This document shows, piece after piece, positions 5,665-51,979 of a DNA stretch of 64,000 bases; the stretch's first letter is position 1, and each line of letters opens with the position of its first letter. The translations under genes and the position numbers were made by a program. The notes beneath the pieces were generated by a model, which was not told where the DNA came from, ran no database searches, and saw only the letters and a program-made list of their open reading frames with translations. The DNA is from Fidelibacterota bacterium (GTDB taxonomy: Bacteria; Fidelibacterota; UBA2242; JAOZSR01), in contig JAOZSR010000007.1 in assembly GCA_029939575.1 (NCBI GenBank), positions 2,092 to 66,091 on the forward strand. Reading direction: 5' to 3'.

Positions 5665-7029
5665 CTATAATTTTTTGTACTCTTCAAATAATCTCATTGC
5701 GTTCTCATTATCCCCAATACTACCATATAATCCAATAATTTTCTTTAAAGTATTTTTATCCTTAGGATTTTTCTTCATAATTATTTGAAATACTTTTATA
5801 GCAGTCTTAAACTCTAATTTTTTAATTAATAAAATTCCTAATGAATTTAAAATTTGACATTCAGAATCATCCGGTTTTTCCAAATTTTCAAGATATTGTT
5901 CCAATTGTTGAATGTTGCCTGAATTAGTGTAAATCTTAATAATTTTATTTAGATTTTGATTAGATGATTGTGCATTACCTGGTAAATTCAAACATTTAAG
6001 AGATAAATCATTTTTTCCAAGTTTTTGATAAATACCGCTTAATACTTCTCTTAATTTTTCTTCTTTAATTAAAACATCACTGGAAATTGTTTTTTTAGAT
6101 TTTTGGACAACTTTTGTCATTTCAATCATTTTCTCAAGTTGCCTGGCAGCTTCTGCATAATCTTTTGTTTCATTAGCAATTTTGTATTGCATAAAATATG
6201 CACCGGATTGAACAGGTTTTATCCTGATACTCTCTAAAAAATTATTCCTTGCCTCATCATATTTTTTAACTTTAAATAAACATTCTCCCATTGTATTTAA
6301 TAGGGACGCCAGCATGCTTTTATTAAACTGTTTCTTTAATTTATAAGCAGTTTTATAATGGAATATTGCCTCATCATACTTCTCTAATAATCCAAGATTC
6401 TGGGCTAAAGTATAATGAGCGTATGCATTATTTGGATCTTCATCAACCATTTTTTCCAATAACGGCTGGTTTCGCATATTTTTTTTTCTTGCTGTTTCCG
6501 GATCATATCCATATCCAAGATGTAATAAAAAAACATCAGAGTCACGTTCTTCACCTTTTAGGCGGGCAGCACTATTTGAAATTTGTTCATGCACCCTCCC
6601 ATTAAAATTAATACCTCTGTGATTATTAAAAAGCCGATGTGCATCTGATAACATAAAATGCTGCCCACCGGGTTTTAAATTTTTAATGTGAATATTATAA
6701 ATTACCGGCTTTTTTTCAAATCGTAGTAATTTTTTTAATCGTGGAATTGAACCCGGAATTAATCTTTCATCGGCATCCAGCCAAAAAATCCAATCTTTTT
6801 TTGCGTATTTTATTGATTCATTTCTGGCTGCAGAAAAATCATCAATCCATTTAAAATTATGAATCTCTGCATTAAATTTTTTAGCAATTTCAATAGTATT
6901 ATCGGTAGATCCTGTATCAATTACTATGATTTGATCTGCAATATTTTTAATACTTTCCAAGCATTCTTCAAATACATCCTCTTCATTTTTTACTATTATA
7001 CAGACTGAAAGAGAACCGGGTTTTTTCAT
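5665..7029 (-). CDS. GT2-family glycosyltransferase fused to C-terminal TPR repeats
   Basis: N-terminus SVCIIVKNEEDVFEECLESI...IVIDTGSTDNT...DDFSAARNES...WLDADE is the GT-A (GT2) fold with its DxD motif. The C-terminal half is TPR-like helical repeats. Confidence 0.7.
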   Translation of the reverse strand: MKKPGSLSVCIIVKNEEDVFEECLESIKNIADQIIVIDTGSTDNTIEIAKKFNAEIHNFKWIDDFSAARNESIKYAKKDWIFWLDADERLIPGSIPRLKKLLRFEKKPVIYNIHIKNLKPGGQHFMLSDAHRLFNNHRGINFNGRVHEQISNSAARLKGEERDSDVFLLHLGYGYDPETARKKNMRNQPLLEKMVDEDPNNAYAHYTLAQNLGLLEKYDEAIFHYKTAYKLKKQFNKSMLASLLNTMGECLFKVKKYDEARNNFLESIRIKPVQSGAYFMQYKIANETKDYAEAARQLEKMIEMTKVVQKSKKTISSDVLIKEEKLREVLSGIYQKLGKNDLSLKCLNLPGNAQSSNQNLNKIIKIYTNSGNIQQLEQYLENLEKPDDSECQILNSLGILLIKKLEFKTAIKVFQIIMKKNPKDKNTLKKIIGLYGSIGDNENAMRLFEEYKKL

Positions 7030-7083
7030 CCAATTTTTCCTATTTTTTTATCTGATATTTCTCTGAAATAATTAATGTTCTAA

Positions 7084-8076
7084 TCAATATTTTAACTGTG
7101 GTGCCGCTTGTTCCAGCGCAATTAGTAATTTTTCAATATCTTTCAAATCAATTGCATCTGTTTCTGATTCTAATAATTTTTTGAAAGCATTATATGCAAT
7201 TTCAATTTGGCCTAAATATGTGCATGAAATAGCATATATATATTTTGAGATATCATTATTTTTATTGTAACTAATACTGTTCTGAGCATATTCCAGTGCT
7301 TCTTTATAATTATTTTCGCCTAATCCAATTTGGGCTAATCTCATAAATATTATATCAAGAATATTTACAGGTAACTGTTTCCTTTTATCATTTATGGATA
7401 ATGCTAATAAAAGATGTTTTTTTGAATTATTAATATCGTCAAGAACTTTATAAGTTTCTCCGAGTTTAAAATTTATATAACTATCATCAGGATTTTCTTC
7501 TATGGCTTTTAAAATTATTGGAAGATTTCTTTGTGCTTTTTCAATATTTTTTTCCATGTAACCATAATGATTAATAATAATCTCTGATTTTAGAACGATT
7601 CCCCGGTTTTGTTCAATTGAATTTCCAATTTGTTCATGAATCCGGTTTTGATACCGGAATTCCGGTTTATTTCGGAATAAACGCACTTGCAAATCTTCAG
7701 TATATTTTTCAAAACTCCCTTTTGCAGCAAAATTTCTGACACCAATAAAAAAACCATCAACTTGATTATTCTTTATAATTTCTTTTATACTATTTTTATG
7801 CAATTCGTCGATTTCTTCATCGGCATCCAAATGCAAAATCCAATTGTATTTTGCTTTATCCAAAGCCTCATTACGAGCTGCAGAAAAATCATCAATCCAT
7901 GTAAAATCATATATTTCAGCGCCATATTTGCTGGCGATTGTTTTTGTTTCATCGTCAGAACCACTATCTAAAATTATTATTTCATCTACAATTCCATTTA
8001 CACTTTTTAAACACCTATCCAAAACATTGGCTTCATTTTTTACAATCATGCAAAGAGAAATTTTAAAATTTTCCAT
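7084..8076 (-). CDS. GT2-family glycosyltransferase with TPR repeats (paralog of 5665-7029)
   Basis: SLCMIVKNEANVLDRCLKSV...ILDSGSDDETK...DDFSAARNEA...HLDADEE is almost collinear with the N-terminus of the neighbouring gene. Confidence 0.7.
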   Translation of the reverse strand: MENFKISLCMIVKNEANVLDRCLKSVNGIVDEIIILDSGSDDETKTIASKYGAEIYDFTWIDDFSAARNEALDKAKYNWILHLDADEEIDELHKNSIKEIIKNNQVDGFFIGVRNFAAKGSFEKYTEDLQVRLFRNKPEFRYQNRIHEQIGNSIEQNRGIVLKSEIIINHYGYMEKNIEKAQRNLPIILKAIEENPDDSYINFKLGETYKVLDDINNSKKHLLLALSINDKRKQLPVNILDIIFMRLAQIGLGENNYKEALEYAQNSISYNKNNDISKYIYAISCTYLGQIEIAYNAFKKLLESETDAIDLKDIEKLLIALEQAAPQLKY

Positions 8077-8139
8077 AATTCATTCTAATTCTTTTATTTA
8101 AACGAAGTTATTACCCCAAATAATGATAAATTCCCAATC

Positions 8140-9135
8140 CTAATCCGGAAAAATTCTATTAATATTTTTTTCAATTTCAGTAAAAATATTTTGCTGTTTA
8201 ATGTTCTCTAAAGTTTCCTTTAGTTTTTCATTATCAACCTTAAAAAAAACACCTTCAGACGTGTTCTTTTCTTTTATTATTGATTTTAATTTTATTACGC
8301 GGATTGCTTTTTTATATTCATTTAAAGGTCTTTCAAGGGTTTCCCGACATTTATCTTCAAAATATTCTATTGGAATTTCATTCATTTTACCCTGTTCACC
8401 CATAATAATTGAAATAAGACTTAATACGGCGAGTTCCTGTTTTGACCATGGTTTAAATTTAATCTCATTATTAAATCCCCGTGCTTCCATATATTTGGCT
8501 CGACTATATTCAGCCAGAATGGAAATCGTATCAAATTTATCTGTGATAAACTGCCTGCCTTTTTCATAATTCAACTCACTTTTAGCTAATTTTGAATTTA
8601 TTAAAATTCCTAATAATTTCCTGACAATTTCAGTATCAATGTTCATGATAAAAGTTATTTGCTCAACAATTTTATTCCAGTTTAAGGATTTGTTTCCAAA
8701 TTGATCTTCTTTAGTACCATTTAATAAAATATCCAAAAAATAGAAAACCTGTCTTGCTATATCTGATATTTCCATATTTCGTTGTCTTTTATCTGCTTTT
8801 CTAAGGCGTTCGACCAGAATTAAATAAAAAGAACGCATCCATGGAGGAACATCACCTAATAACTTTTGAAAAATGTTTTCATTTATTTCAAGACAAATAA
8901 CGTTAGTTAAAGCTCTAACTGTTGCTGAGCGTGGTTGACGATCTATTAATGCCATTTCACCAATAATTGCGCCAGATCCTAATTTGGCCAACACTGTCTT
9001 TTGATTCCTTATTTGAGTTGACACTTCAACCTCACCGGACTGTATAATAAACATGGAATTGCCTTTATCATTTTCCATGCATAGAAATTCACCTTTTTTG
9101 AAATTTCGAATTGCTTTTTTTTCAATAAAATCCAT
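8140..9135 (-). CDS. cyclic-nucleotide-binding (cNMP/Crp-like) domain protein with uncharacterised C-terminal domain
   Basis: N-terminal 120 aa FKKGEFLCMENDKGNSMFIIQSGEVEV...LGSGAIIGEMALID...RSATVRAL fit the cNMP-binding beta-barrel pattern. No HTH or known output domain is recognisable in the C-terminal 200 aa. Confidence 0.6.
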   Translation of the reverse strand: MDFIEKKAIRNFKKGEFLCMENDKGNSMFIIQSGEVEVSTQIRNQKTVLAKLGSGAIIGEMALIDRQPRSATVRALTNVICLEINENIFQKLLGDVPPWMRSFYLILVERLRKADKRQRNMEISDIARQVFYFLDILLNGTKEDQFGNKSLNWNKIVEQITFIMNIDTEIVRKLLGILINSKLAKSELNYEKGRQFITDKFDTISILAEYSRAKYMEARGFNNEIKFKPWSKQELAVLSLISIIMGEQGKMNEIPIEYFEDKCRETLERPLNEYKKAIRVIKLKSIIKEKNTSEGVFFKVDNEKLKETLENIKQQNIFTEIEKNINRIFPD

Positions 9136-9162
9136 AATAAATTCTTCTTATCGCCTAATTAA

Positions 9163-10248
9163 TTATTCATATTGAGCTATTAATTTCAATGCTATGTTGG
9201 CAGCATTTTGCCAATTCCACTTCTCTACCATTTGTTGTCTTGCAAATTTTCCTTTTTTAATTGCCTCGTCCCGGTTCTCATAAATGTATCTCATATAAAA
9301 TTTTAACTGCTCCATATCCGGTTGCGCCCATTTACCTGTTCCAAAATCAGTCCAATTAAAATATAAATCCTTTATGTCTTCTAACTGATAATCAAGCAGA
9401 TAGCAATTTTCCTCAGTGATAAATTCCGTCGGACCACTATAATTCGTGGCAACTACCGGTAGACCACAGGCCATAGCCTCAGTTATTGGTAAGCCCCAGC
9501 CTTCTGAACGGCTTGGAAATAAAAAAGCATCACAGGAATTATAAAGTGAGACTATGATATCATTTGATATGCTATTAAGAACTAATATTTTTTCCGGTGA
9601 TTTCAGAGATAATTTGTTAATTTCTTCCGAAACACTAAAATTTTTCATAAAAGTATTGTTAACACTTAAAACTAAATATACATCTTTTTCTGAATGGAAT
9701 TCCTGGTCAAATGCTATTATTAATTCCTTTGTGCATTTGCGTTTTTCCCATTTCCCAATATTTAAGAATTTAAAACCGGGAATTTGGTCTAAAGCCGGTA
9801 TAGAATTTTTATTTGGGTTGAATATTTCTGTATTTACTCCTTCAGGAACAACATCTATCTGTTTTGCTTTAAATCCATTTTCAATTAGTATTTGCTTATT
9901 CCAACCTGTAGTTGTCCAGATTTTGTTAGGAATTTTTAAAGGTTCCAACCATTCTTTGGGAATAATTGTTGATCCAAAAGTAGTATATCCAATATTAAAT
10001 CCAGGTAAATTATTGAAAAAAGTAAAATATCTGCCATAGCTTATCATTATAGTAACATTGTTTTGGCTATTACCATATTTCCCCAGATAATTAAAAAGTT
10101 CCTTCTTTATTGCATCTGTTCCTTTTGAAAGGTCTAATTCGGTTGAATTAAATTGTTTTCCAACAGCTTTATAAAAATTTCTTGTATGAATATTGTAACC
10201 TGTATTACCTGATATATGTCCTACTAAAAGTAGATTTTTATTTTTCAT
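9163..10248 (-). CDS. GT4-family (GT-B fold) glycosyltransferase
   Basis: The C-terminal motif FLFPSRSEGWGLPITEAMACGLPVVATNYSGPTEFI is the canonical GT4 EX7E region. Confidence 0.75.
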   Translation of the reverse strand: MKNKNLLLVGHISGNTGYNIHTRNFYKAVGKQFNSTELDLSKGTDAIKKELFNYLGKYGNSQNNVTIMISYGRYFTFFNNLPGFNIGYTTFGSTIIPKEWLEPLKIPNKIWTTTGWNKQILIENGFKAKQIDVVPEGVNTEIFNPNKNSIPALDQIPGFKFLNIGKWEKRKCTKELIIAFDQEFHSEKDVYLVLSVNNTFMKNFSVSEEINKLSLKSPEKILVLNSISNDIIVSLYNSCDAFLFPSRSEGWGLPITEAMACGLPVVATNYSGPTEFITEENCYLLDYQLEDIKDLYFNWTDFGTGKWAQPDMEQLKFYMRYIYENRDEAIKKGKFARQQMVEKWNWQNAANIALKLIAQYE

Positions 10249-10416: not shown

Positions 10417-13400
10417 TTAAATATTCTCATCAATCATTTCCATCATTTCAAGAGCTGTTTCATCATTCGGTTTTATTTCCAAAATTTTTGTGACAAAAGA
10501 TTTGGCATTAACAAAATTTTCTACTTCCATAAATAATTGTGCTAATCGTGTAAGTGTCAAAACATCATCAGGAAAATTTTCTAATATATGATCAAAAGTA
10601 TGAACACCTTTTTCATATTCACCTTTTGCTATGAACACTTCAGCCAAATTTCTTTGAGCATCCAGGAATTGTGGATCCAATTCAGAGGATTTTTGAAACA
10701 TTGCAATGGCATTATCTAATTCCTGCTGTTCATAAGAAATGATTCCTAATATATTAAAAGCACCGGCATGATTTGGCTCAATCTGGAGTAATGTTTCAAT
10801 CAATTTAATTGTCTCGACATTATCTTCTTTTTCTCTGGAATCTAATATTTTATCAAAAAGTTCATTTTCATTTAACCCTGTACTCTTGACCGCTTCAGAT
10901 TTATTAATATCATTAGTAACACTTTGATTATCAGGCGAATTGGTTAATATCATATTTTCCTTTGATATATTTGCTTCATTGGGAATAAAATTCCATTTTT
11001 CATCAAATCGATTTCCCCAGCGTTTGAAAAACAATTCAAGATTTTCATTGAAATATTTAAATCTATCGTCACTAACAGCTTCATGATGAATTATTACTGA
11101 ATCGGGATTATACAATATTTTATATCCCTTATCCCTTACTTTTAAACAAAGATCAATATCTTCAACACCCATTTGATATTTCTCATCAAATTTACCAACA
11201 TTAAAAAATAATTCAGTTGGTATTAAAAGACATGCACCGGTTACCATATCAAATTCTTTTACCTGGTTTATTGCTGGAGAATTTTCATCAGCATATCTGT
11301 TTGGGTGTTCCATCAAGTAGTCAATTTGTCCATAGTTTTTAATTTGTATTGGCTCATCTAATTTTACAAACTCCACACCTGCATGCTGAACACGTCTATC
11401 AGGATATAATAATTTAGCACCTACAATTCCCGTATTCTCATTTTTTTGAAACACCTGAAATAAACTGGTCAACCAATTTTTTTCAACTTCTGTATCATTA
11501 TTTAAGAATACCAAATATTCACTTGATGCAATTTCTGCACCTCTGTTTGACCCACCGGCAAATTTTTGATTTTCCTCCAAATGAGTAATAATGACATTAT
11601 CATTTTCCTGTTCAAGATACTTTAAATATTCCCATGTAGAATCTTTGGAAGCATCATCAACTAAAACAATTTCATAATTTGGATATTTTGTATTTCTTTT
11701 AATTGATTCAATACATTTTTTGGTAAATCCTAAATTATTATATAATGTTAAAACTATTGATATTTTGGTTTTATTATTCGCAGGTTTTTTTTTTGATTTT
11801 ACACTATCTCGATTCACAAGGAGTTCTTGCATTCTATTTCTGAATTCATTTACATTTTTCACTTTAGTTATAGAATCCCATGGATCAATAAAAATATATT
11901 CAGCAGGGTCTTTCCAATTGGCGTGTTTTTTAGGTCGTACAGATTCAAATACAATTGTTGGAATATTTCCTAAAGCCGAAAAACTTTTACCCCAGGTATC
12001 TGCACCTATCAATACATCAGCTGTAGCGACTATTTGCATTTGCTCAAATATATTATAACTTCTTTTATTAATAACTTTTCCAAAAATAGGATAATCATCC
12101 TCCTCAGTTGGTATTCCAATGATAACAGGGACAATATTTTGACCGTTAAGAAAATTAATTATTCTATGCCAAAATTTCGGATCAATAATATTCTTCTTCC
12201 CTTCCACCATTCCTTTTAAACTACCTTTTGGGTTAATTACTACCTGAAAATCCGTAATTTTTTCAGTCTTAAAATTATTTACCCAATTACATTTTTCAGT
12301 TAATCCATATTTCTTAAATACATTTAAATCTGATGTCCATTCTTCAAGGTAAGTATTTCTTGGTGTAGCACCGAGTCCCTTTACATTTTTGATTTGAGTT
12401 AATATTTGCCTGTATATACCATGAAATTTAAGGTTTACGGGATATGGTAAGAAAAATATTTTCTTCAGTTTTGGAAAACAATTAAAAAATTGTTCCATTA
12501 CATTAATATTGTTAGGAATACATAAAACAATTTGTTCCGGTTCCTGATCATAAAATGACGATAAGAGTAAACAGGCATCTCCAATTCCTCCCATATGCAC
12601 ATAAATATGACCTATGGATTCAAAAATACTGGCTAAATAGTGAACAAAAATATCAGTATATTCTTCAACAAAATCAAAATTATTAGGTTCAATAATTTCT
12701 GACAGAAAGATTGCATTTCCTTTTATTTCTTTTATTAATTTACACTTATCGCTTGTAAAATATTTTGGGTGAAATTTTATTAATGGCTTCAGATTTTGTA
12801 AACTTGCCTGCTCAGGAGATATTTTTGCTATTTGGTTAACTAATTCCAACAATTTACTGCTATCACCTGTTTTTGTTGCAAGTTGAAGCTGTTGTTTAAT
12901 ATCTTCAATAACTGATTTACTATCCTTTGTTTTACTATTCTCTTTTTTATCTATTTCTTCTGAAATCATATTTTCCAAAATATCAATTGCATTTTCTTCA
13001 TTGGCTTTTAAAGGTACCTGTTTTGATGTTTCTATATCATTAATATTATCCGTTTTTTCCAAAATTTCCAGTAACTCTAGCGCATCTTTATTATCAGGCT
13101 CAACTTCAAGCACTTTATTTATAAATTTTATCGCCATATCCTTTTTTCCAACTTCAAAATAGAGTTGCCCCATTCGGTTAAGAACAAGTACATCATTAGG
13201 ATGTTCTCCCAAAATTTCATCAAAAATATTTATTCCTTTTTCATAATCACCTTTGGACAACATTACTTCTGCAAGATTTCGTTTTGCATCCAGTAAATCA
13301 TGATCATTTTCAATAGCCTGGGAAAAAGACTGAATAGCTTTTTCTAAATCACCTTCTTCAAAATTGATGATTCCAACCATATTATATGCAGCAGCATAAT

Positions 13401-16400
13401 CCGGTGCAATATTTAATATATTTTCTAAATATTCTTTACACGCTACAATATCCCCTGACTCTTTGGCTTTAAGAACTTTTTCAAAGAGTATATCCGGCGT
13501 TGAATCAATATTTTTAGTACTTCCGGTGTTACTTATGAAATGTTGTATTAAATTTTGTATTTCAATATTGTCACTATCAACAATAATTGCCTTTTTAAGA
13601 TATAAAAAGGCATCATCAAAACGATCATTTTCAAGTAATAATTCAATGATCATTACAATAGTTGTAATATCATTTGGAAAACTTTTATTCAGTTTTATTA
13701 ATCGATTAAATGCTTCCTCGTATTTATTTTCAACAATATCAATTTCTGCTAATTTCCTACTTATTTTTATACAGGCAGGACTAAATTTTTCAGATTTTTC
13801 TAATAAATTATAAGCTGCTTTATTATCATTATTAAGAAGATGAATATTACTGGCTAAAATTATCGCTTTTGTATAAAAAGGAAAATCTGTAAGCAAATGT
13901 TTAATTTTCTCAAAAGCTTTTTTATATTCACCGGCATCTGTAAACTTCTCACAATCCTGGTATATAGATTCAAAATCCTCAAAATTTGGAAGAATAGTTT
14001 TCCCTGCTAATTTATTTTTTATTTTACTGTAAATCTCAAACATCAATTTTTCTTCTTCAAAATCATTCTCCAAATCATCTATTTTCGGAGTAGTTTTGAT
14101 ATGTTTTTCTTTCCTTGCGTAAAATCTAATCTCTTCGCCAAATCCCTCTTTTTCAATTAATTCTACTATTGAATGAATATCAGTATCATTATTTATATCA
14201 AACATGGCATTAATAGTTTTATTAAGGTTACTGTCACTATAATCACCGGTAATAGTATAAATTTTTTCAATTTTAAAACCATATCGATGCAGTTCTCGTT
14301 TTAAAATATCAATATAAAAATGAACATAATGATATGCAGGATCTAACAAAAACCATTGATCTTTTAAAAATAACGACATAAAAGAACCAAAATTTGGTAC
14401 AGCACCACAAAACATGCCACCAGGTTTAAGAATATTGTTAATCTTTTTAAGCGCTACAAGAGTATATGGTATATGTTCAAAAACATGAGACATTGTAACT
14501 ACATTAAGAGAATTTTCATTAAAATCCTGCTGGTCAAACTGAATATTGGAAACATTTATATTGAGTACATTTTTAGCGTATTCTACATTTTTTCTGGTAA
14601 CTTCAATTCCTTGTACATCAAATCCTTTTTGACGGGCATTATACAGTAATCCGCCCCAACAACAACCAATATCAAGAAATTTGCCTTCGGGCTTTGTGAA
14701 TTCCAATATTTCATTCATAAAATTTTTACGAAATTGTGAGTGTTTAGGTATATCAGCAACAGAATCAGGAGGTTTATGTGAATCTACATCACCATAACTT
14801 TGATAAAGTTTTTCCATTGCCTCGCGGGTAAGCCGGGTTCTTAGATAAATACTATTGCAATCTACACATTGAACGATATCATTACTATTTCTAATAACTT
14901 TTGATTTGCCACTATTACAGAAAGGACATTTTATTTTCTGATAGTTTTCCTGGATTTCATCCAGGCTGTCATATTCAGAAATTAAATTTTCATTTTTCTT
15001 TTCTTGATTATTAAATCTTACTATTGGTTTTTTTGTTAATTGAAGAATACGATTTTGCAAAATAGCAGAGGAATTATCCCAACTAAACTCTTCTTTAGCA
15101 TATTTTGATGCAATTTGTCCTATTTTTTTAATATTTTCAGGATTCTTGTATGCAAAATGCATCTTTTTAGCCAAATCTTCTATACTTGGTTCAAACAGCC
15201 ATGGATTATTTACTAATTCTTCTTCACCAATTTTTGTATCCTTATATTTCACTTTCCTGGCATCTATAAATATTGAGTTTTCATCATTACAAAAATCAAG
15301 ACAAGCCCCACCTCTGGTAACTATAGGTGAAATACCACAACTCATGGCTTCTAAAATAGGCAATCCAAATCCTTCTCCCCTATAAGGATGAACCAGACAA
15401 TTACAGGCTGTATATAGGCCAATAAGTGATGGCTCATCAAGATACTTATCAATATATTCGATTTCCGGTAACGAGTGATCCTGCTGAATTTTTCTAATTT
15501 CTGCTTTATTATTCTTTCCCCGATAAAATGAATCTCCACCCATATCTTTAATCACAAGACAAACATCATCTTTACTGGAGAACTGTTTTTTATAAGATTC
15601 CAGCAGTATATCTATTCCTTTTCTATAGATTGTTCCGCCTAAAAACAGGAATTTAAATTTTTTCTTCGTTTTAAGCTGATATGGTGGCACATTAGGATTA
15701 AATTTTTCATAATCTATTCCATTAGGTATTACAAATACCCGATCAGATGGAACACCACTGTCAAGATAAATTTTCTTAACATAGTTACTTGGCACCCAGA
15801 ATTCATCAACATCTCTGGAAAATACTTTCACCCAATTTTTTGGTAAATAGCCGAACTCCCAAGGTTGAATGATAACCCAATGCCCCTTTTCCGGAGCTGT
15901 TAAGTTGGGTGGCCATTGATGCCGGACATGAACATCAACTTTTGCTAACTTCCTATTTACTCTTTGTTTTATTTTTCTAAATGGGCTTTTCTTTCCTGGT
16001 ATAAACTGATCCTTTTCATAGGGTAAAACAGAAACATTAAATCCACCATTAATAATTCTTAAGGTTTGTTCGCGGTTTACAAGAGCCAGAGAATGATAAA
16101 CAAATTGGGAACCTTCCCAAATAACATTTATATCAGATTTTGATTGCTGCTCGCTTACAGATAGTAATTCTCTCTCAATTTTCGATCTATATTTCAAAAA
16201 ATTATCAAAATATTCATACCAACGTTTAATAAAAATAGTTAAGTTTTTTTCCACATTATCAAACCGACCGTCTGATTTTCCTTCATAATGAATGACAATA
16301 GAATCAGGGGTATAAATTACACGTTTCCCCATTTCTCTTATTTTAAGACAAAGATCAATATCCTCACACCCGTTAATATATATTTCATCAAACCCACCTA

Positions 16401-19400
16401 TTTCATTAAATAGTTTTTTGGAGATCAAAAGACAGGCACCTGTAACCATATCTAAATCACGTTGATATGAAACAGCAGAATCATTCTCAGCAATATTCCT
16501 GTTAGGGTGGTCAGGAACCCACCGAATCTCACCATAGCCTTTTATATTTTTAGGTTTTATTAATTTTAAAAGTTCAATACCGGCATGCTGAATTTTTCGA
16601 TTCTGATAGATTAATTTTGCTCCAATAACTCCTGCATTTTTCTCTCTTTTATGTATTTTCAGAAGATTATGTAGCCATCCTGTTTGAACCTCGGTATCAT
16701 TATTTAAAAATACGAGTACTTCTCCCTTGGATATTTCTACGCCCTGATTATTGGCGGCAGCGAAATATTTGTTTTTTTCATTATGAATTACCTGAATATT
16801 TTCAAAATTGCTGTTTAATTCATCAATATACTCCCTGGTTTCATCATTAGAAGCATTATTAATAAAAATGATTTCATAATTTGGATACAATGTATTATCA
16901 AAAATTGCCTGAACACATTTTTTTGTGTATTCACATTTATTAAATAACGGGATAATAATGGATACCTGAGTATAATAATTATCAATAATATTCTTCAAAT
17001 ATTCTTTTCTATCTAATACTCTGTTATTTTCTACCGATTGTTGTCCATTTTGAATAGATGGTAAAATTTTTAATAATAATTTTTTGAAATTTTCAAAATT
17101 AGTTACTTTTGTTATTGACTTCCAGGGGTCAATAAAAATAGATTCTGCAGGATCTTTCCAATTCTTATATTTTGCAGGACGGAGACTTTCAAATACTATT
17201 GTCGGGATTTCTCCTAAAGCTGAAAAAGATTTTGCCCATGTATCTGCACCAATTACTAAATCTGCAGATGCCACTAATTGCATTTGTTCATAAAGATCAT
17301 AACTCCGCTTGTCAATCATTTCACCGGTTTTATAATAAATATCCCGTTCTTCCGGTATGCCGATTATTATAGGTTTAATATTTTCATCATTCAGAGTTGC
17401 TACAATTTTTTCCCAGTATAATGGATTGATAATATTTTTCTTTCCATTCATCATACCTTTCATGCTACCCTGGGGATTAATTATTACCTGGAAATCGACA
17501 ATTTTTTGGGTTTTAAAGAGATTAATCCATTCACATTTCTGATTAAGATTATATTTTGTAAAGACATCAAATGTGTTTAACCATTCTTCAATATAATTAT
17601 CTTTCGGTGTGGCGCCTAATCCTTTCACATTACTTATCTGATGAAAAATTTGGCGGTAAATATTATGGGAAATATTATTTTTTGGCATTGGTAGAAAAAA
17701 CACATTTTTTAATTTTGGAAAAGACGAAAAAAACTTTTTCATAGTGCTAATAGAATTAGGTATACTCAAGATAACCTGTTCCGGATCTGCATCATAAAAT
17801 GATGATAATAGTAAACACGCATCTCCAATTCCACCCATATGAACATAAATAGGTCCTAATTCTCTAAAAATACTGGCAATATGGTGGGTTACCGGCTTTA
17901 AATATTTTTTAGCTTCTAATAAATTTTTGGGTTCAATATTTCCTGATAGATAAACAAATTTTCCATCTATTTTTTCTATTAATTTTTTTATTGCAATTAC
18001 CGCAACTTCTTTTTCCCATTTCAAATAAAATCTTGAGGCAGCTTCCATATTTAATCGATCTATTTCAGCCTGATTAGGATTTGACTGAGCTTCATGATGG
18101 ATAAGTACACATTTTGGATCATATATAACTTTTTTTCCTGCTGCTTTCACTTTAAAACATAGATCACTATCTTCAAAATACATTCCATAAGCTTCATCCC
18201 AACATCCAATTTGGTTAAAAAAATCAGTTTCCATAAATACACAGGCTCCGGTAACAACAGGAAATTCTTCTACTTTATTAATTTTAGGATTATCGGGAGA
18301 AGTACCTCTTAAACGATGAGCTGGCCAAACTGAATATATTGTGCTGATATTCTGAAATAAATCGAGGCCACAGTGCTGAACTGTCCCATTAGGATAGAGT
18401 AGTTTCGCCCCTACAATGCCAATATTTTCATCACTTTTAAGGCGATTTATTCCTACAGTCATCCAATTTTCTTGAACCTCAGTATCATTATTCAAAAAGC
18501 AAATATATTTATTTTTAGCAAATTTCGCCCCTGCATTGCAACCTCTGGCAAATCTAAGATTATCATCGTTATATACACCACGAATATTTGCATGGGCTTT
18601 TTCCATTTCCTTAACATATTGCCTTGTATTATCTTTTGAGCCATTATCAACGAGAATAATTTCATAATTAGGATATTTTGTGTTTTGAAAAATTGAATTA
18701 ACACATTGGCGGGTAAATTTAACATTGTTATAAAGAGGAATTACAATTGATACTTTTGGAATTCCTGATTCAGATTTTTTGACAGGAAAATTATTCGGTT
18801 TTGCAACAATATTTTTGCTATCTTTTTCTACAAAAAAATTATCTATCCAATTACAAATAGCAATGCACTTTTCTTGGTTCGGACGAAAATCAATACCATT
18901 TTTCTGTTTTTTCTCTTTAATTCTGGATCGCAATTCTGTAATCCTGGAGTTAGTGGAATTGGTTTTCAGGAAGTTAAATAGCTCATCTGCGTCCCTATTA
19001 AAGTTAATTATTCCTTCTCTGGTCAGATGGTTACATTGAGTTATTTTTTCTTTAGAAAACATTTCATATAAATATGGATATGGTACTATAGTACAAGGGA
19101 CACCTGCTATTAATGCCTCCCAGATTATTGATGAAAAATGAGGACTTACCAATAAATCAGTAACAGCAAGTACTTCTGGATTTTTGTCAATGGTAAAAAC
19201 CATGTTTTGATTGATATTATTTTTTGAGGCCAATTTTTTCACGTAATTTTGAATACCAATATAAGTATCTGAAAACTGATCAAAAATTGGATGCATTTTA
19301 AAAATTAACTCTACCTCCGAAATATTTGGCAATTGAAAAATCTTTAATAAAATTTGTTTGTTATGTTCAGCCTGTTCCATAAAATCAAACTGTACTTTTG

Positions 19401-20130
19401 AAGGCAAAATTACTTCACACCATGACCAGCAATATGTTATAACTATTTTATTTTTATTAATTCCTAAAACATCACAGGCTTTTTCACGAGATAAATTCGG
19501 ATCATAGGCAATTGGAATAGGTATTCCTAAAGGTAAAATTTCCTGTGATTTATCTAAAAATTCATTCCAAACATCCTTTTCCATTTGATTATTCATACAA
19601 ATGTAATCAGAATTAAAATTTGGATATGGAAATTTTCCTGGTTTCCAAATTTCTTTATCAGGACGAATATTTGAATCATATCCATGTGATATATTTAAGG
19701 TTGGTATTCCATTCTTTTTTGCTTCCAGAACAAAAGGAGCCCGTTCACCCGAATAGTCAGCACTAGTGATAAATAAATCAATTTTATTCTCTTTAATGTA
19801 TTCTTTAAACATTTCTAATTTTACAAATATTCTAAAAACCGTCTCAGAGATATGTTTAACATCCTGCTTTTCAAGAGGTTCTACAGTTTTTGTTTCCAGA
19901 ATTTTTTGCAAATTATTCTCTGTAAATCTCAATAATCTATAAACATTATCACTGTATTCCGGAAGAATTGTATTGATATTTATATTGACAACATCTTCTA
20001 TAAATGATATTCTGGTATTATTTCCAAAATTTTCATTTTTATAAGTTATAACATTATATCGCTGACATAACTCTGATAATAATTCACTATGTCTAATACC
20101 AAATAATCCAGTAACAAAAATATTTTTCAC
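10417..20130 (-). CDS. giant 3237-aa multidomain protein, N- to C-terminus: unknown domain, GT2, GT9-like, GT2, GT4, Zn-ribbon + class I SAM methyltransferase, TPR block, GT9-like, GT2, TPR block
   Basis: Uninterrupted 9.7 kb ORF in AT-rich DNA. GT2 motifs occur three times: VSIVIPLYNN...DNGSKDNT...FLNNDTE (around nt 18760), VSIIIPLFNK...NNASNDET...FLNNDTE (around 16975) and ISIVLTLYNN...DDASKDST...FLNNDTE (around 11765). The GT9-like motif IYVHMGGIGDACLLLSSFYD occurs twice (around 17855 and 12610). GT4 motif: HPYRGEGFGLPILEAMSCG. The methyltransferase has CPFCNSG...CVDCNS followed by LDIGCCWGG. TPR-like repeats: AAAYNMVGIINFEEGDLEKAIQSF... Confidence 0.8.
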   Translation of the reverse strand: MKNIFVTGLFGIRHSELLSELCQRYNVITYKNENFGNNTRISFIEDVVNININTILPEYSDNVYRLLRFTENNLQKILETKTVEPLEKQDVKHISETVFRIFVKLEMFKEYIKENKIDLFITSADYSGERAPFVLEAKKNGIPTLNISHGYDSNIRPDKEIWKPGKFPYPNFNSDYICMNNQMEKDVWNEFLDKSQEILPLGIPIPIAYDPNLSREKACDVLGINKNKIVITYCWSWCEVILPSKVQFDFMEQAEHNKQILLKIFQLPNISEVELIFKMHPIFDQFSDTYIGIQNYVKKLASKNNINQNMVFTIDKNPEVLAVTDLLVSPHFSSIIWEALIAGVPCTIVPYPYLYEMFSKEKITQCNHLTREGIINFNRDADELFNFLKTNSTNSRITELRSRIKEKKQKNGIDFRPNQEKCIAICNWIDNFFVEKDSKNIVAKPNNFPVKKSESGIPKVSIVIPLYNNVKFTRQCVNSIFQNTKYPNYEIILVDNGSKDNTRQYVKEMEKAHANIRGVYNDDNLRFARGCNAGAKFAKNKYICFLNNDTEVQENWMTVGINRLKSDENIGIVGAKLLYPNGTVQHCGLDLFQNISTIYSVWPAHRLRGTSPDNPKINKVEEFPVVTGACVFMETDFFNQIGCWDEAYGMYFEDSDLCFKVKAAGKKVIYDPKCVLIHHEAQSNPNQAEIDRLNMEAASRFYLKWEKEVAVIAIKKLIEKIDGKFVYLSGNIEPKNLLEAKKYLKPVTHHIASIFRELGPIYVHMGGIGDACLLLSSFYDADPEQVILSIPNSISTMKKFFSSFPKLKNVFFLPMPKNNISHNIYRQIFHQISNVKGLGATPKDNYIEEWLNTFDVFTKYNLNQKCEWINLFKTQKIVDFQVIINPQGSMKGMMNGKKNIINPLYWEKIVATLNDENIKPIIIGIPEERDIYYKTGEMIDKRSYDLYEQMQLVASADLVIGADTWAKSFSALGEIPTIVFESLRPAKYKNWKDPAESIFIDPWKSITKVTNFENFKKLLLKILPSIQNGQQSVENNRVLDRKEYLKNIIDNYYTQVSIIIPLFNKCEYTKKCVQAIFDNTLYPNYEIIFINNASNDETREYIDELNSNFENIQVIHNEKNKYFAAANNQGVEISKGEVLVFLNNDTEVQTGWLHNLLKIHKREKNAGVIGAKLIYQNRKIQHAGIELLKLIKPKNIKGYGEIRWVPDHPNRNIAENDSAVSYQRDLDMVTGACLLISKKLFNEIGGFDEIYINGCEDIDLCLKIREMGKRVIYTPDSIVIHYEGKSDGRFDNVEKNLTIFIKRWYEYFDNFLKYRSKIERELLSVSEQQSKSDINVIWEGSQFVYHSLALVNREQTLRIINGGFNVSVLPYEKDQFIPGKKSPFRKIKQRVNRKLAKVDVHVRHQWPPNLTAPEKGHWVIIQPWEFGYLPKNWVKVFSRDVDEFWVPSNYVKKIYLDSGVPSDRVFVIPNGIDYEKFNPNVPPYQLKTKKKFKFLFLGGTIYRKGIDILLESYKKQFSSKDDVCLVIKDMGGDSFYRGKNNKAEIRKIQQDHSLPEIEYIDKYLDEPSLIGLYTACNCLVHPYRGEGFGLPILEAMSCGISPIVTRGGACLDFCNDENSIFIDARKVKYKDTKIGEEELVNNPWLFEPSIEDLAKKMHFAYKNPENIKKIGQIASKYAKEEFSWDNSSAILQNRILQLTKKPIVRFNNQEKKNENLISEYDSLDEIQENYQKIKCPFCNSGKSKVIRNSNDIVQCVDCNSIYLRTRLTREAMEKLYQSYGDVDSHKPPDSVADIPKHSQFRKNFMNEILEFTKPEGKFLDIGCCWGGLLYNARQKGFDVQGIEVTRKNVEYAKNVLNINVSNIQFDQQDFNENSLNVVTMSHVFEHIPYTLVALKKINNILKPGGMFCGAVPNFGSFMSLFLKDQWFLLDPAYHYVHFYIDILKRELHRYGFKIEKIYTITGDYSDSNLNKTINAMFDINNDTDIHSIVELIEKEGFGEEIRFYARKEKHIKTTPKIDDLENDFEEEKLMFEIYSKIKNKLAGKTILPNFEDFESIYQDCEKFTDAGEYKKAFEKIKHLLTDFPFYTKAIILASNIHLLNNDNKAAYNLLEKSEKFSPACIKISRKLAEIDIVENKYEEAFNRLIKLNKSFPNDITTIVMIIELLLENDRFDDAFLYLKKAIIVDSDNIEIQNLIQHFISNTGSTKNIDSTPDILFEKVLKAKESGDIVACKEYLENILNIAPDYAAAYNMVGIINFEEGDLEKAIQSFSQAIENDHDLLDAKRNLAEVMLSKGDYEKGINIFDEILGEHPNDVLVLNRMGQLYFEVGKKDMAIKFINKVLEVEPDNKDALELLEILEKTDNINDIETSKQVPLKANEENAIDILENMISEEIDKKENSKTKDSKSVIEDIKQQLQLATKTGDSSKLLELVNQIAKISPEQASLQNLKPLIKFHPKYFTSDKCKLIKEIKGNAIFLSEIIEPNNFDFVEEYTDIFVHYLASIFESIGHIYVHMGGIGDACLLLSSFYDQEPEQIVLCIPNNINVMEQFFNCFPKLKKIFFLPYPVNLKFHGIYRQILTQIKNVKGLGATPRNTYLEEWTSDLNVFKKYGLTEKCNWVNNFKTEKITDFQVVINPKGSLKGMVEGKKNIIDPKFWHRIINFLNGQNIVPVIIGIPTEEDDYPIFGKVINKRSYNIFEQMQIVATADVLIGADTWGKSFSALGNIPTIVFESVRPKKHANWKDPAEYIFIDPWDSITKVKNVNEFRNRMQELLVNRDSVKSKKKPANNKTKISIVLTLYNNLGFTKKCIESIKRNTKYPNYEIVLVDDASKDSTWEYLKYLEQENDNVIITHLEENQKFAGGSNRGAEIASSEYLVFLNNDTEVEKNWLTSLFQVFQKNENTGIVGAKLLYPDRRVQHAGVEFVKLDEPIQIKNYGQIDYLMEHPNRYADENSPAINQVKEFDMVTGACLLIPTELFFNVGKFDEKYQMGVEDIDLCLKVRDKGYKILYNPDSVIIHHEAVSDDRFKYFNENLELFFKRWGNRFDEKWNFIPNEANISKENMILTNSPDNQSVTNDINKSEAVKSTGLNENELFDKILDSREKEDNVETIKLIETLLQIEPNHAGAFNILGIISYEQQELDNAIAMFQKSSELDPQFLDAQRNLAEVFIAKGEYEKGVHTFDHILENFPDDVLTLTRLAQLFMEVENFVNAKSFVTKILEIKPNDETALEMMEMIDENI

Positions 20131-20984: not shown

Positions 20985-22193
20985 TTATTTACCTACTTTT
21001 GCAGCTATATCTGTTTTGGCAATTATTTCTTTTAAATCTAAATCAGAGGGAGGTTCTTGCTCCCATAATGGATTTTTCAATTTCCAATCTCCATTATCAT
21101 CCAGTTCCCACATATCACCTCTAAAAGAATTTGTGACATCCCAAAATTCTTTTTCGCTGATATCAATATATTCACAAAAGTTTTTAATATATTTATTCCC
21201 ACATTTTCCATCAAAAGTTTTAATAAGTGCTATACCTTCGGCTCTTGATATCAACCCATAACGGATATCATAATTAACATGATCTGTAGCCTGACCAAAA
21301 CCAAATTTTACATGTTTCATCATCTGATTTACTTCTAACAAATCTCCACTACCATCCAATTGTGAATACCTGTTATAAGTACCTAAATTATCAAGATTTC
21401 TATCTTTTGATCTTATTGTAAGTCCATTTTTTAATGAAAAGAGTAAATTATGTTGAAATGAATATTCTTTTACATAATAATTCATCCAGATCCCTCTTAT
21501 ATCCATTTCCCTCAATTTATTAGCATCATAGTGAAATAAAAACATATCATCTTCTTCTACTAATCCTTCTTTAATAAATGGCTCAATTCCTTCTATTAAT
21601 GTATTATGTTTATTAGCAATTAGCGCATCATCACCAGTACCTAACTCAGATTTGCTATCACCAAATGTTAATCCAACATTTTCACCCTGTATGATTAATG
21701 GAATATCAAATTTTTGTGCTATAATATAGGTTACAGCATAAAGAACATATTCAGTGGTTCTACCTGGGTTAAGATTATCATAGAAGTCACGTTTAATTAA
21801 TTTTTTTTGAACTATTGAATTCGCTCGTAAAGCAATAGTATCAAATCCAAGATTTTTTAAGTTCTCAATATTTTTCAAACCAATTTCAGAAATATTTCCA
21901 GGTTCGCAGTTTACAAGTAATGGTCTTAATCCCAGTACATCCCTGGCATAAAGGGCCTGAAAGGTACTATCCTTTCCGCCACTGACACCAATAGCACATT
22001 CATATGGTGTTCCACGTTTTTTAGCTTTTCTTTTAGTTTCAACAACAATTTCATTTAATTCTTTCTGCCGCTGATTCCAATCAATGGTGGTCTCCATTTT
22101 TTCTTTCCATAAACATCCACCGCATACTCCTTCTTCATTAAAATATATATTTGGTCTTGTATCAGGCTGAACACACTTTGTGCAATATTTCAT
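20985..22193 (-). CDS. N-acetyl-sugar amidotransferase (PP-loop ATPase; PseA/WbpG family)
   Basis: N-terminal CTKCVQPDTRPNIYFNEEGVCGGC zinc ribbon followed by the SGGKDS PP-loop. This layout is typical of flagellin-modification PseA and LPS WbpG amidotransferases. Confidence 0.75.
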   Translation of the reverse strand: MKYCTKCVQPDTRPNIYFNEEGVCGGCLWKEKMETTIDWNQRQKELNEIVVETKRKAKKRGTPYECAIGVSGGKDSTFQALYARDVLGLRPLLVNCEPGNISEIGLKNIENLKNLGFDTIALRANSIVQKKLIKRDFYDNLNPGRTTEYVLYAVTYIIAQKFDIPLIIQGENVGLTFGDSKSELGTGDDALIANKHNTLIEGIEPFIKEGLVEEDDMFLFHYDANKLREMDIRGIWMNYYVKEYSFQHNLLFSLKNGLTIRSKDRNLDNLGTYNRYSQLDGSGDLLEVNQMMKHVKFGFGQATDHVNYDIRYGLISRAEGIALIKTFDGKCGNKYIKNFCEYIDISEKEFWDVTNSFRGDMWELDDNGDWKLKNPLWEQEPPSDLDLKEIIAKTDIAAKVGK

Positions 22194-22810: not shown

Positions 22811-23878
22811 TTAAACTTTAAAATTATTGATTGATTGTTTATACTGTTCCCATTGACCGACATCTATCCAAGATTTATCCGATACAGGGAAAACTCCGAC
22901 ATTTATATTATTTTCTTTAATTTTGTTAACTAAACTTACCATATCAAAAGGTTCGTTTTCAGGGATATATTTTAAAACACTCGCATTAATGAGATACATG
23001 CCGGTATTTACTAAAAAATCGAATTCCGGTTTTTCATATATCGTTTTTAATGATCCTTGATTTTCATGAGTACAGACTCCATAGGGTATTGTAAATTGCT
23101 TCATTGAAGTCACAATTGTCAAATCAAAGCCATTATCTTTATGAAAATTATATATTGCATCATAATCGGTTTTCACAATAATATCACAATTTGACATAAA
23201 AAATGGTCCGTTTATGACACCATCAATCAATTTTAATGCACCTGCGCTTCCCAACGGCTTATTTTCTTCAATATATTTTATAGAATAATCAACATCTTCA
23301 TTATCAAAATATGCCTTGATCATTTTATCTTTATAAAAAACAGATAAATAAAAATCTTTCATTCCAAAATTTGCATATTCATCCATTATTATCTCAATAA
23401 TTGGTTTTTCTCCTATTGGGATGAGTGCTTTTGGTAATATTCTGGTAAATGGATCGAGTCTGGTCCCTTTCCCTCCTGCCATAATTACAACCGGTAAATC
23501 AAGATTAGATTCATTTTTTACTTTTTTACCTTTAATAATTTTAATATCATCTTTGTTAATAATATTTATTAATTTGCCATCATCAAGTACCGGAAGTAAT
23601 TCAACACCACTACCTTTATTAAAAAACTTTTCCAGATTAGATTTGGAATAATTCTTACTAATACATTGAAAATGTTTATTAGCAATTTGCATGATGTTTT
23701 GATTTAAAGCAACTCCGGACAACACAGCACGACGAAAATCACCATCAGTTACAATTCCCACAACTTTATGATTATCATCAATGATTACAATAAATCCAAA
23801 TCCGGCATTATCCATTTGCTTGATACCATCACGAATGTTGGAATTCATACTAACCTGAAATTCCCCAATATCTATCAT
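22811..23878 (-). CDS. CBS-domain sugar-phosphate nucleotidyltransferase (PtmE-like)
   Basis: N-terminal tandem CBS-like segments (VVGIVTDGDFRRAV). They are followed by the nucleotidyltransferase motif VVIMAGGKGTRLDPFTRILPKALIPIG. This architecture matches the Campylobacter legionaminic-acid GDP-sugar enzyme PtmE. Confidence 0.7.
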   Translation of the reverse strand: MIDIGEFQVSMNSNIRDGIKQMDNAGFGFIVIIDDNHKVVGIVTDGDFRRAVLSGVALNQNIMQIANKHFQCISKNYSKSNLEKFFNKGSGVELLPVLDDGKLINIINKDDIKIIKGKKVKNESNLDLPVVIMAGGKGTRLDPFTRILPKALIPIGEKPIIEIIMDEYANFGMKDFYLSVFYKDKMIKAYFDNEDVDYSIKYIEENKPLGSAGALKLIDGVINGPFFMSNCDIIVKTDYDAIYNFHKDNGFDLTIVTSMKQFTIPYGVCTHENQGSLKTIYEKPEFDFLVNTGMYLINASVLKYIPENEPFDMVSLVNKIKENNINVGVFPVSDKSWIDVGQWEQYKQSINNFKV

Positions 23879-24963
23879 AATGATTCCTGCAAATTAATTA
23901 CTCTATGAAATAAATCAATAAAATTTGATATTGAATTTAAATTCTGTTTTCTTACTTTCATTTTCCTTTGTTGCTTAATTAGTCTCTTAAGTATAGGTAA
24001 AATATCACTTTCTTTAGTAACAAGAAATATGCCATCTCGTCTGTCGATATTATCAATTCGAATTTTTTTATTAGGTTGAATACTTAATACCTGACTCCCC
24101 AATAACATTGCTTCATATAGCAAAACAGAATACAAACCTACAACTAATCTTGATTGATATACTAATTTCCAGGAGTTTGTATCTGCTTTGGAGATAAATA
24201 TTTCAATTTTATTTTTATAATAATCAATAATTTCATGTATTTTTTTAGAAATAAATCCTCTCGGATGTGGTTTATAAATAATTGAATATTGCTGATTATA
24301 TTCCTTATTTAATTGAATAATATTTTTTATTGTTAATTCAAAAACTTCAATTTCTGTAAATCCCAGGGTTTTCTTTTCATCTTCACCCATTATTGGATTA
24401 AAAGGATCTCCAACAAAAAGTATTTGCCCCTTATTATAATTACTTTGCATATTTCTATTATTATCCAGAAAATTATTTATCTTATCATAAAGCGGGCTAC
24501 CGGTAATCACTATTTTTTCCTGTGGACATCCCTCCTCTATCATACTATCTGCCATTATTTTATCAATAACTGCTACATAATCTGGTAATAAATTATAATG
24601 TTTCCCGGAATCAGGTTTTAATGTAAATCGTTGCCAGTAATTTACCCATGTATCAACAAATCCAATTGATGGGATATTATGCTCTTGAGCCCATTTCCAA
24701 AACAACCCATCATCAGCTACATTATCAGAGGTTCCGGAAAAAACAACTAAGGGATTAATCTCTTCAAGAATATTTACAACATCATAGAAATTAGTGTATT
24801 GAAAAAAATTATACCCCTCTTTTTTCCAATAATCAGCGGCATGGGATGCTGCGAAAAGAAATGGTGAAAATCCGGCCTTAATCAAAGAATCTATTATCGA
24901 CGAAATAAGTCGGGCTGAGCCGATTTGTCTAACAATGATTGCAATTGGTTTATTCATCATCAA
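23875..24963 (-). CDS. hypothetical GT-B-like protein (possible PseG/NeuC/LegG-type hydrolase or TagF-like transferase)
   Basis: 362 aa. The alternating beta-alpha character and the KPHPRG motif suggest a Rossmann-like GT-B or TagF-like fold. No definitive motif seen. Overlaps neighbouring genes by 4 and 14 nt. Confidence 0.3.
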   Translation of the reverse strand: MMMNKPIAIIVRQIGSARLISSIIDSLIKAGFSPFLFAASHAADYWKKEGYNFFQYTNFYDVVNILEEINPLVVFSGTSDNVADDGLFWKWAQEHNIPSIGFVDTWVNYWQRFTLKPDSGKHYNLLPDYVAVIDKIMADSMIEEGCPQEKIVITGSPLYDKINNFLDNNRNMQSNYNKGQILFVGDPFNPIMGEDEKKTLGFTEIEVFELTIKNIIQLNKEYNQQYSIIYKPHPRGFISKKIHEIIDYYKNKIEIFISKADTNSWKLVYQSRLVVGLYSVLLYEAMLLGSQVLSIQPNKKIRIDNIDRRDGIFLVTKESDILPILKRLIKQQRKMKVRKQNLNSISNFIDLFHRVINLQESL

Positions 24964-26317: not shown

Positions 26318-26376
26318 AACTGCTCCTTTATAATTTCAATTTTTTTTACTTTACCGTACTTAAATAATTTTCGGAT

Positions 26377-27348: not shown

Positions 27349-27359
27349 TATGTTGCGCC

Positions 27360-28067: not shown

Positions 28068-28079
28068 GTAAACACCCAG

Positions 28080-30012: not shown

Positions 30013-30014
30013 AT

Positions 30015-35999: not shown

Positions 36000-36013
36000 A
36001 ATAAATCCATTTT

Positions 36014-51975: not shown

Positions 51976-51979
51976 TTTC

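Follow-up and report, generated by a model that had tools for sequence, protein, structure and literature searches.

Domain organization of the giant gene

The 64,000-nucleotide (nt) stretch of DNA analysed in this study, hereafter called the window, belongs to contig JAOZSR010000007.1 in the genome assembly GCA_029939575.1 of a Fidelibacterota bacterium. Its minus strand carries a giant open reading frame (ORF), which starts with GTG and continues uninterrupted, with zero internal stops, through 3,237 amino acids (aa). The order of the domains in the product was determined with Pfam and custom hidden Markov models (HMMs), and is listed below from the N-terminus to the C-terminus, with positions in the window followed by those in the protein. 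GT denotes glycosyltransferase, either as a numbered family (GT2, GT4 and GT9) or as a fold (GT-A and GT-B), TPR denotes the tetratricopeptide repeat, and X is the name given here to a domain of the GT-B fold, the identity of which is described in a later section.

10417-20130, minus strand: giant ORF, consisting of an N-terminal weak GT-B-like region, GT2-1, X1, GT2-2, GT4, Zn-ribbon, methyltransferase, TPR1, linker, X2, GT2-3 and TPR2, in this order
18781-20130, minus strand (aa 1-450): N-terminal region, weakly similar to GT-B/MurG
18001-18768, minus strand (aa 455-710): GT2-1, the ancestral GT2, which precedes X in the homologues and lies outside the duplicated unit
17050-17985, minus strand (aa 716-1027): X1, GT-B fold and remote GT9 relative, with the invariant motifs GGxGD and DTWxK
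16201-16980, minus strand (aa 1051-1310): GT2-2, directly after X1, at a position empty of GT2 in the closest homologues
15031-16113, minus strand (aa ~1340-1700): GT4 (GT-B), 68% identical to that of the nearest relative (locus L002)
14161-14973, minus strand (aa ~1720-1990): Zn-ribbon (aa ~1730) and class I S-adenosylmethionine-dependent methyltransferase (aa 1806-1955)
13051-14133, minus strand (aa ~2000-2360): TPR1, matching the C-terminal TPR region of the L002 protein, which is the ancestral C-terminus
aa 2361-2463, minus strand: charged linker of ~100 aa, non-homologous
11815-12741, minus strand (aa 2464-2772): X2, 64% identical to X1 and free of indels
10999-11778, minus strand (aa 2785-3044): GT2-3, directly after X2, sister of GT2-2
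10420-10998, minus strand (aa 3045-3237): TPR2, C-terminal TPR unit with 36% identity to aa 2169-2359

The Pfam GT2 profile (PF00535) matched the protein with 292.5 bits over three stretches, above the gathering score, giving three GT2 domains in total. Altogether, the giant protein contains seven putative glycosyltransferase domains and one methyltransferase. It lacks a transmembrane segment, as the maximum Kyte-Doolittle mean over 19 residues was 1.52, and owing to this absence of any segment with hydrophobicity at the transmembrane level, the protein was predicted to be soluble.

Two collinear copies of an X-GT2 module

The initial annotation of this DNA, made from the sequence alone, had proposed that a GT9-like domain followed by a GT2 domain forms a module of 1.6 kb that was duplicated within the giant gene. 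Two collinear copies of such a module, approximately 630 aa in length, were indeed present.

16126-18018, minus strand (aa 705-1335): copy 1 of the module
10903-12774, minus strand (aa 2453-3076): copy 2 of the module

The two copies shared 52% identity at the protein level and 62-66% at the nucleotide level. The self-comparison by BLASTP was carried out on the split protein, as the unsplit sequence returned the identity match alone, and paired aa 676-1335 and aa 2430-3076 in an alignment of 667 columns with 49.9% identity (669 bits, E = 0). BLASTN between the copies gave 65.6% identity over 1,734 nt (E = 3e-102). Smith-Waterman alignment of the copies needed few and short indels, all of them within linkers, and the domains themselves aligned with zero indels (64% identity over 272 aa for X1 and X2, and 48% over 246 aa for GT2-2 and GT2-3). 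The module alignment score of 1740 stood against 48 +/- 7 in 200 shuffles (z = 246), so that the significant collinear similarity extends across the linkers and beyond short shared motifs. The segments that had been picked out as collinear, GPIYVHMGGIGD at aa 759 (nt ~17855) and GHIYVHMGGIGD at aa 2507 (nt ~12610), lie within this alignment. The spacing of about 5.2 kb agreed with the measured offset of 1,748 aa, or 5,244 nt, and the GT2 domain after each copy of X was supported by Pfam. Only the length of the module had to be revised: the similar region (aa 705-1335) measures closer to 1.9 kb than to 1.6 kb, as an N-terminal extension of X of ~45 aa and the GT2 tail also align between the copies.

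The antisense ORFs at 17084-17293 and 11720-12058, which had been noticed as encoding similar peptides, do so (GSIKIDSAGSFQF and GSIKIYSAGSFQL at their respective beginnings). Both are antisense readings of the coding stretch with the highest conservation (DPAE.IFIDPW) and are not features in their own right. A second repeat was found in the TPR regions, where BLASTP aligned aa 2169-2359 with aa 3040-3235 at 36% identity (E = 2.5e-41).

Synonymous sites were saturated between the copies, with a synonymous divergence (dS) of ~1.5, and the nonsynonymous divergence (dN) was 0.28 for X and 0.45 for GT2. No tract of recent gene conversion between the copies was detected in a windowed analysis of the proportion of synonymous differences (pS), which was 0.5-0.8 everywhere except for aa 716-765. 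In this short segment (aa 716-765 against aa 2464-2513, window positions 17836-17985 and 12592-12741), pS was 0.34 and the protein identity was only 46%, in a small sample.

Domain X is a remote homologue of GT9

When searched on its own, one X domain (~310 aa) gave no meaningful match in Pfam, NCBIfam or the sequences of the PDB; matches to seipin and flavodoxin were dismissed as compositional noise. At E <= 1, Pfam returned zero families for aa 701-1050 or aa 2441-2790, and PF01075, the GT9 family, gave no match to X at any threshold. An AlphaFold2 model of X1 based on an alignment of 78 sequences had a predicted local distance difference test score (pLDDT) of 92 and a predicted template modelling score (pTM) of 0.90, and consisted of two Rossmann-like halves. 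When the model was compared with the PDB by Foldseek, nine of the ten best hits were WaaC, WaaF, TibC or a GT9 protein of Veillonella, and the tenth was a 2-epimerase. The matches to GT9 structures reached E = 5e-6 and a probability of 1.00, with template modelling scores of 0.41-0.49 and identities of 10-15%.

Profile comparisons gave the same relationship. The sole plausible match of the X family profile among PDB sequences was WaaF (1psw), at a weak E value of 0.0019. The alignment of this profile with three PF01075-bearing segments by hhalign had a probability of 96.9% and an E value of 1.5e-10 over 206 columns, in which GGxGD was paired with the G-D motif of GT9 and DTWxK...IPT with the D-S-x...P-x-V motif. 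X is a remote homologue of GT9 that lies outside this family by the Pfam criterion. The earlier label "GT9-like" was thus appropriate in the sense of remote homology, as borne out by the fold search, the match to WaaF and hhalign. The catalytic base of HepI is the Asp of its N-terminal motif, and D770 in X1 and D2518 in X2, the Asp residues of GGIGD, may by analogy correspond to it.

X and a bona fide PF01075 domain occur within the same polypeptide in the proteins P0113 (X at 77-358 and GT9 at 476-609) and P0010 (X at 1293-1566 and GT9 at 1681-1843). The protein P0090 combines X (81-362), GT2 (387-645) and a PF01075 GT9 domain (786-900). This co-occurrence indicates that the two related GT-B types coexist and do not replace each other.

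The X family and unduplicated relatives

A word-indexed homologue search retrieved two proteins with X as the query and five with the 78-sequence profile, and an exhaustive search was needed. HMMER applied to 1.84 billion cluster representatives (clustered at 50% identity) detected 221 relatives of X at E <= 0.001, many of which are embedded in multi-domain proteins of 1,000-3,800 aa and others of which are stand-alone proteins of ~260-360 aa. A scan of GTDB identified 61 X loci. The scan used a 12-sequence alignment, as a version with four sequences found zero and the one with 78 sequences was too diverse for patterns. All of these loci were in metagenome-assembled genomes (MAGs) from several phyla, labelled as Verrucomicrobiota, Bacteroidota/Ignavibacteria/Calditrichota, Syntrophales and Acidobacteriota-type taxa. 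The X family as sampled here belongs mostly, possibly only, to uncultured bacteria. Its usual setting is a GT2-X-GT4 core with TPR and methyltransferase, often beside flagellin, FliS or FliD.

The nearest relative was found at locus L002, also recovered as the metagenome contig L063. Its protein of 2,155 aa has the organization GT2-X-GT4-methyltransferase-TPR and is 59% identical to the giant protein in GT2 (compared with GT2-1), 57-60% in X, 68% in GT4 and 54% in the methyltransferase. GT4 follows X directly, with no GT2 in between, and the end of the protein aligns with aa ~2354, where TPR1 of the giant protein ends. A single X without a following GT2 was also the arrangement in L003/P0003 (1,511 aa) and L004. 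When compared with the L002-like form, the giant protein has thus gained GT2-2 between X1 and GT4, and X2-GT2-3-TPR2 beyond the old C-terminus. The N-terminal ~460 aa are unrelated to the ~470 aa at the same end of the L002 protein (7712-9120 of that locus), which open with a methyltransferase-like motif, indicating that the 5' end of the gene was swapped as well. In metagenomes, a scan yielded only L063, which repeats the L002 locus, and L064, a partial contig resembling L003, with no closer relative.

Two X domains in one protein or locus were not encountered elsewhere, either among the best 150 of the 221 representatives or in 62 fetched loci (about 210 other proteins or loci in all). The order of the domains was also distinctive. 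Of the 59 GTDB loci, 19 had GT2 directly upstream of X and not one had it directly downstream, and the X-to-GT2 order was otherwise seen only in the distant P0090 among the same 150 representatives.

The two copies are each other's closest relatives

X1 and X2 were 64% identical, when compared with 55-61% for the best outsiders. In neighbour-joining (NJ) trees, they were paired in 84 of 100 bootstraps with 38 library representatives, and in 100% of 500 replicates when the GTDB relatives L002 and L003 were included; the clade of X1, X2, L002 and L003 had 99% support. GT2-2 and GT2-3 were sisters in 75 of 100 NJ bootstraps and have in common a 7-aa insertion that is missing from GT2-1, which was placed by NJ in the clade of GT2 domains directly preceding X in other proteins. 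In a word-filtered search of 5.8 billion protein clusters with the whole module, no protein covered more than 55% of it, and the best external GT2 identity was 44%, below the 48% between the copies.

The phylogeny proposed as a check by the initial annotation therefore placed both X1/X2 (100%) and GT2-2/GT2-3 (75%) as closest relatives. Sister domains, collinear linkers, the shared insertion, saturated dS and single-X relatives together substantiated its view of an old in-frame duplication of a GT9-like and GT2 module followed by divergence. The duplication is genuine and took place in this lineage alone.

The two X-GT2 modules might instead have been recruited separately from different donors, by shuffling or horizontal transfer. 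Domain shuffling is rife in these proteins, as the N-terminus unrelated to that of L002 and the wide variation of architectures illustrate. The bootstrap values of both domain pairs, the collinear linkers and the 7-aa insertion common to GT2-2 and GT2-3 argue against separate recruitment, as does the rarity of the X-to-GT2 order described above. Such independent acquisition is highly improbable and already looks refuted.

Both copies have been retained under purifying selection

A set of 20 positions is conserved in 80% or more of 145 X domains. Both copies keep 19 of these, and the twentieth showed the same T-to-S change in X1 and X2. Both copies are under purifying selection, as dN/dS between them was ~0.17 for X and ~0.28 for GT2. 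The motifs NNDTEV and ED(I/S)DLC were kept in all three GT2 domains. Purifying selection and the conserved residues in both copies suggested that both are probably active.

The first conserved Asp of GT2 (near aa 1090 in GT2-2), which usually contacts the nucleotide, is replaced by Asn in GT2-2 only. The motif there is INNASND, as against VDNGS or VDDAS; the region reads IIFINNASNDET in GT2-2, and IILVDNGSKDNT and IVLVDDASKDST in GT2-1 and GT2-3, respectively. Owing to this replacement, donor use or activity may differ in GT2-2. It would also fit with a non-catalytic role of one copy, structural, sugar-binding or regulatory, by which no transfer steps were added, and there are examples of duplicated GT domains without activity among other multi-domain glycosyltransferases. 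The retention in both copies of the 19 conserved X residues and of the GT2 motifs NND and ED.D, together with dN/dS far below 1 in both domains, speaks against this possibility, which we consider quite unlikely.

The initial annotation had suggested that the duplicated modules may add a repeated disaccharide unit. The divergence of the copies (64% identity in X, 48% in GT2 and the D-to-N change in GT2-2) favours two different steps as much as a repeat, although any choice at this level is speculative.

The giant gene lies in a flagellar glycosylation island

The giant gene is located within a sugar-modification island of ~45 kb, which is flanked by fliC/fliD on one side and flgL/flgK/flgI/flgG on the other. 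The features of the island and its borders are as follows.

1358-2212, plus strand: flagellin gene (284 aa), the product of which is the probable acceptor substrate
2703-4199, plus strand: gene for the filament cap FliD
5665-10248: several stand-alone GT2 and GT4 genes
20985-22193: WbuX amidotransferase
22811-31845: legionaminic/pseudaminic-type genes
31858-33689: split transketolase
34430-35488: radical S-adenosylmethionine protein
35523-39685: FabA-like, LuxC and LuxE (acyl activation) and AMP-binding genes
40969-42267: phosphoenolpyruvate mutase fused to a cytidylyltransferase-like domain
42296-43624: sulfatase-family protein
43636-44745: Fe-alcohol dehydrogenase of the phosphonate type
44742-45845: phosphonopyruvate decarboxylase
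47002-53483: flgL, flgK, flgI and flgG

The nonulosonic acid set comprises a LegC-family aminotransferase, a NeuB-like synthase, a CMP-sugar synthetase, a 2-epimerase of the hydrolysing type and a CBS-nucleotidyltransferase. The phosphonate genes (40969-45845) suggest that the flagellin glycan may carry 2-aminoethylphosphonate or hydroxyethylphosphonate. No genes of a heptose-nucleotide pathway were noticed among the island ORFs scanned.

One of the genes among the glycosyltransferase genes just downstream of the giant gene (8140-9135, minus strand) encodes a protein of 331 aa that begins with a cyclic-nucleotide-binding domain and is a possible regulator of the island. Two adjoining large ORFs of 653 and 616 aa on the plus strand (55384-59201) had no NCBIfam match at E <= 1e-10.

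The X family is linked to flagellin loci. Of the 62 homologous loci, 20 encoded flagellin or FliD within 10 kb of X, as did 16 of the 31 that were 18 kb or longer, when compared with an expectation for random genes of ~1% by our own estimate. X was also considered as a legionaminic/pseudaminic acid transferase. The co-occurrence with nonulosonic acid genes that this predicts was not seen, NeuB-type genes being absent within 10 kb of homologous X, and we therefore make no claim on the donor of X.

From the genomic context and the analogy with FlmG, a flagellin glycosyltransferase described in the last section, the giant protein is likely to be a soluble enzyme for the assembly of the flagellin glycan. 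Another target, such as precursors of lipopolysaccharide (LPS) or capsule, or another protein, would make the flagellar position incidental. The LPS core is the classical substrate of GT9, half of the well-covered X loci have no flagellin nearby, and the island contains many generic sugar-modification genes. These points are opposed by the position of the island between fliC/fliD and flgL/flgK, by the well-covered loci from several phyla, ~50% of which have flagellin or FliD no further than 10 kb from X, far above the estimated ~1%, and by the presence of TPR regions together with the absence of a membrane segment. Moreover, no Wzx-, Wzy- or O-antigen ligase-type gene appeared among the scanned ORFs. 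A target other than flagellin is accordingly regarded as unlikely, at a somewhat higher chance than a non-catalytic copy.

Proposed history and role of the duplication

The overall explanation that we consider probable is a lineage-specific in-frame duplication of X-GT2 in a soluble multi-catalytic enzyme for the flagellin glycan. The ancestral core would have been GT2-X-GT4-methyltransferase-TPR. After the split from the nearest sampled relatives, a GT2 would have been placed directly behind X, and the X-GT2 unit (~630 aa) would then have been duplicated in frame, with the second copy and a TPR unit extending past the ancestral C-terminus. The linkers on both sides of X align between the copies, which argues that X and GT2 were duplicated as a unit. 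The simplest route would be a tandem duplication of the 3' block X-GT2-GT4-methyltransferase-TPR with a later loss of the second GT4-methyltransferase, since the length of this block equals the 1,748-aa period at which the copies are spaced. As for the role, an O-linked glycan may be assembled stepwise on flagellin in the cytoplasm, ahead of export, with the TPR regions holding flagellin and the extra X-GT2 pair supplying two further transfer steps. The tandem-block mechanism, the catalytic activity, the use of flagellin as the acceptor and the donors are points that we infer.

X2-GT2-3-TPR2 could also be a former separate gene, a truncated tandem paralogue located downstream, which was joined to the giant gene by the loss of a stop codon. 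The alignment of the L002-like ancestral C-terminus with aa ~2354 and the charged, non-homologous linker of ~100 aa (aa 2361-2463) before X2 are consistent with such a fusion. TPR2 ends like a natural C-terminus, with ALEMMEMIDENI directly before the stop, comparable to ALELLEILEK at the end of TPR1, and stand-alone X proteins as well as an X-GT2 protein (P0090) exist. X2-GT2-3 must nevertheless still derive from X1-GT2-2, as supported by the trees, making the fusion a variant of the same duplication, and a relative with a separate downstream X gene was not seen, each of the 62 loci having one X. Duplication followed by fusion is a possible, if somewhat unlikely, course of events as a whole. 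As regards the mechanism by itself, a later-fused duplicate gene and a tandem-block duplication are equally possible.

Several points weigh against the in-frame duplication in a flagellin-glycan enzyme as outlined above. The trees are NJ trees of short domains, in which the GT2 pair had a support of 75% only, and the sampling of GT2 was composed of X-bearing proteins and a word-filtered database search. The intermediate with a single X-GT2 copy was not found in the GTDB or metagenome scans. TPR2 was 42% identical to a TPR unit of L002 and only 36% to TPR1 of the giant protein itself, which is neutral on the tandem-block model. To these are added the Asn of GT2-2 and the half of the well-covered X loci that have no flagellin within 10 kb.

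Glycan-assembly enzymes are known to gain steps by duplicating their catalytic modules internally, and the present case is ordinary evolution in this respect. It is a clean and datable case, with an unduplicated relative for comparison and two intact copies, whose divergence is sufficient for different specificities to have arisen. The X family and its link to flagellin may be more useful than the duplication itself, because X is a real unannotated family strongly tied to flagellin loci in several poorly studied phyla. The conserved core of GT2-X-GT4-TPR-methyltransferase may represent a machinery for flagellin glycosylation that differs from Maf and FlmG. We tentatively raise the idea, at somewhat less than an even chance, that X, an undescribed GT-B family related to GT9, is the hallmark of a third class of flagellin glycosyltransferases that act in the cytoplasm and are built on this core. 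If true, the third class would be seen here widening its glycan-building capacity by duplication of a two-enzyme module. Confirmation would extend the knowledge of flagellar glycosylation outside Proteobacteria and Firmicutes, and would offer modular parts for glyco-engineering.

Comparison with known systems

The heptosyltransferases of GT9 (WaaC/HepI and WaaF/HepII, and TibC of the BAHT family) have the two-Rossmann GT-B fold in common with X. X is ~40 residues shorter than GT9 and has a signature of its own, GGxGD...W...DTWxK...F...W. TibC demonstrates that cytoplasmic glycosylation of proteins is possible with this fold.

The Maf nonulosonic acid transferases are found in flagellin glycosylation islands, and some of them contain TPR (10.1101/2023.12.03.569772). 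They are characterized by a GT-A-type MAF_flag10 domain (PF01973), which was not among the Pfam matches listed for the giant protein, its scanned segments or the other scanned ORFs of the island.

FlmG of Caulobacter and Brevundimonas is cytoplasmic, and its TPRs bind flagellin while the GT-B domain (~290 aa) transfers the sugar (PMC7591256; 10.1101/2022.03.25.485807). The giant protein resembles FlmG in architecture and context, as it combines TPR and GT-B in one predicted cytoplasmic polypeptide encoded near flagellar and legionaminic/pseudaminic-type genes. FlmG is a two-domain protein of 596 aa said to be confined to Caulobacterales (10.1101/2023.12.03.569772), whereas the giant protein is 3,237 aa long with about ten domains, and X occurs across several phyla. 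In contrast to the FlmG systems, X loci are generally without nonulosonic acid genes, although the window of the giant gene has them. Three X proteins of ~600 aa (P0099, P0116 and P0119) were considered as FlmG orthologues and dropped, as they had no TPR matches and their N-termini did not look TPR-like by eye.

KpsC, with two modules for the transfer of beta-linked 3-deoxy-D-manno-oct-2-ulosonic acid (Kdo), as well as WbdA, WbbB and related O-antigen polymerases, contain internally duplicated GT modules that carry out successive or alternating steps. The giant protein is similar to KpsC, WbdA and WbbB in being a single soluble polypeptide with several GT modules, some of which originated from internal duplication. 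The organization of modules among multi-module glycosyltransferases is diverse (PMC11231755). While KpsC, WbdA and WbbB act on lipid-linked glycans at the membrane, it is a pair of GT-B and GT-A domains that was duplicated in the giant protein, and its context is flagellar.

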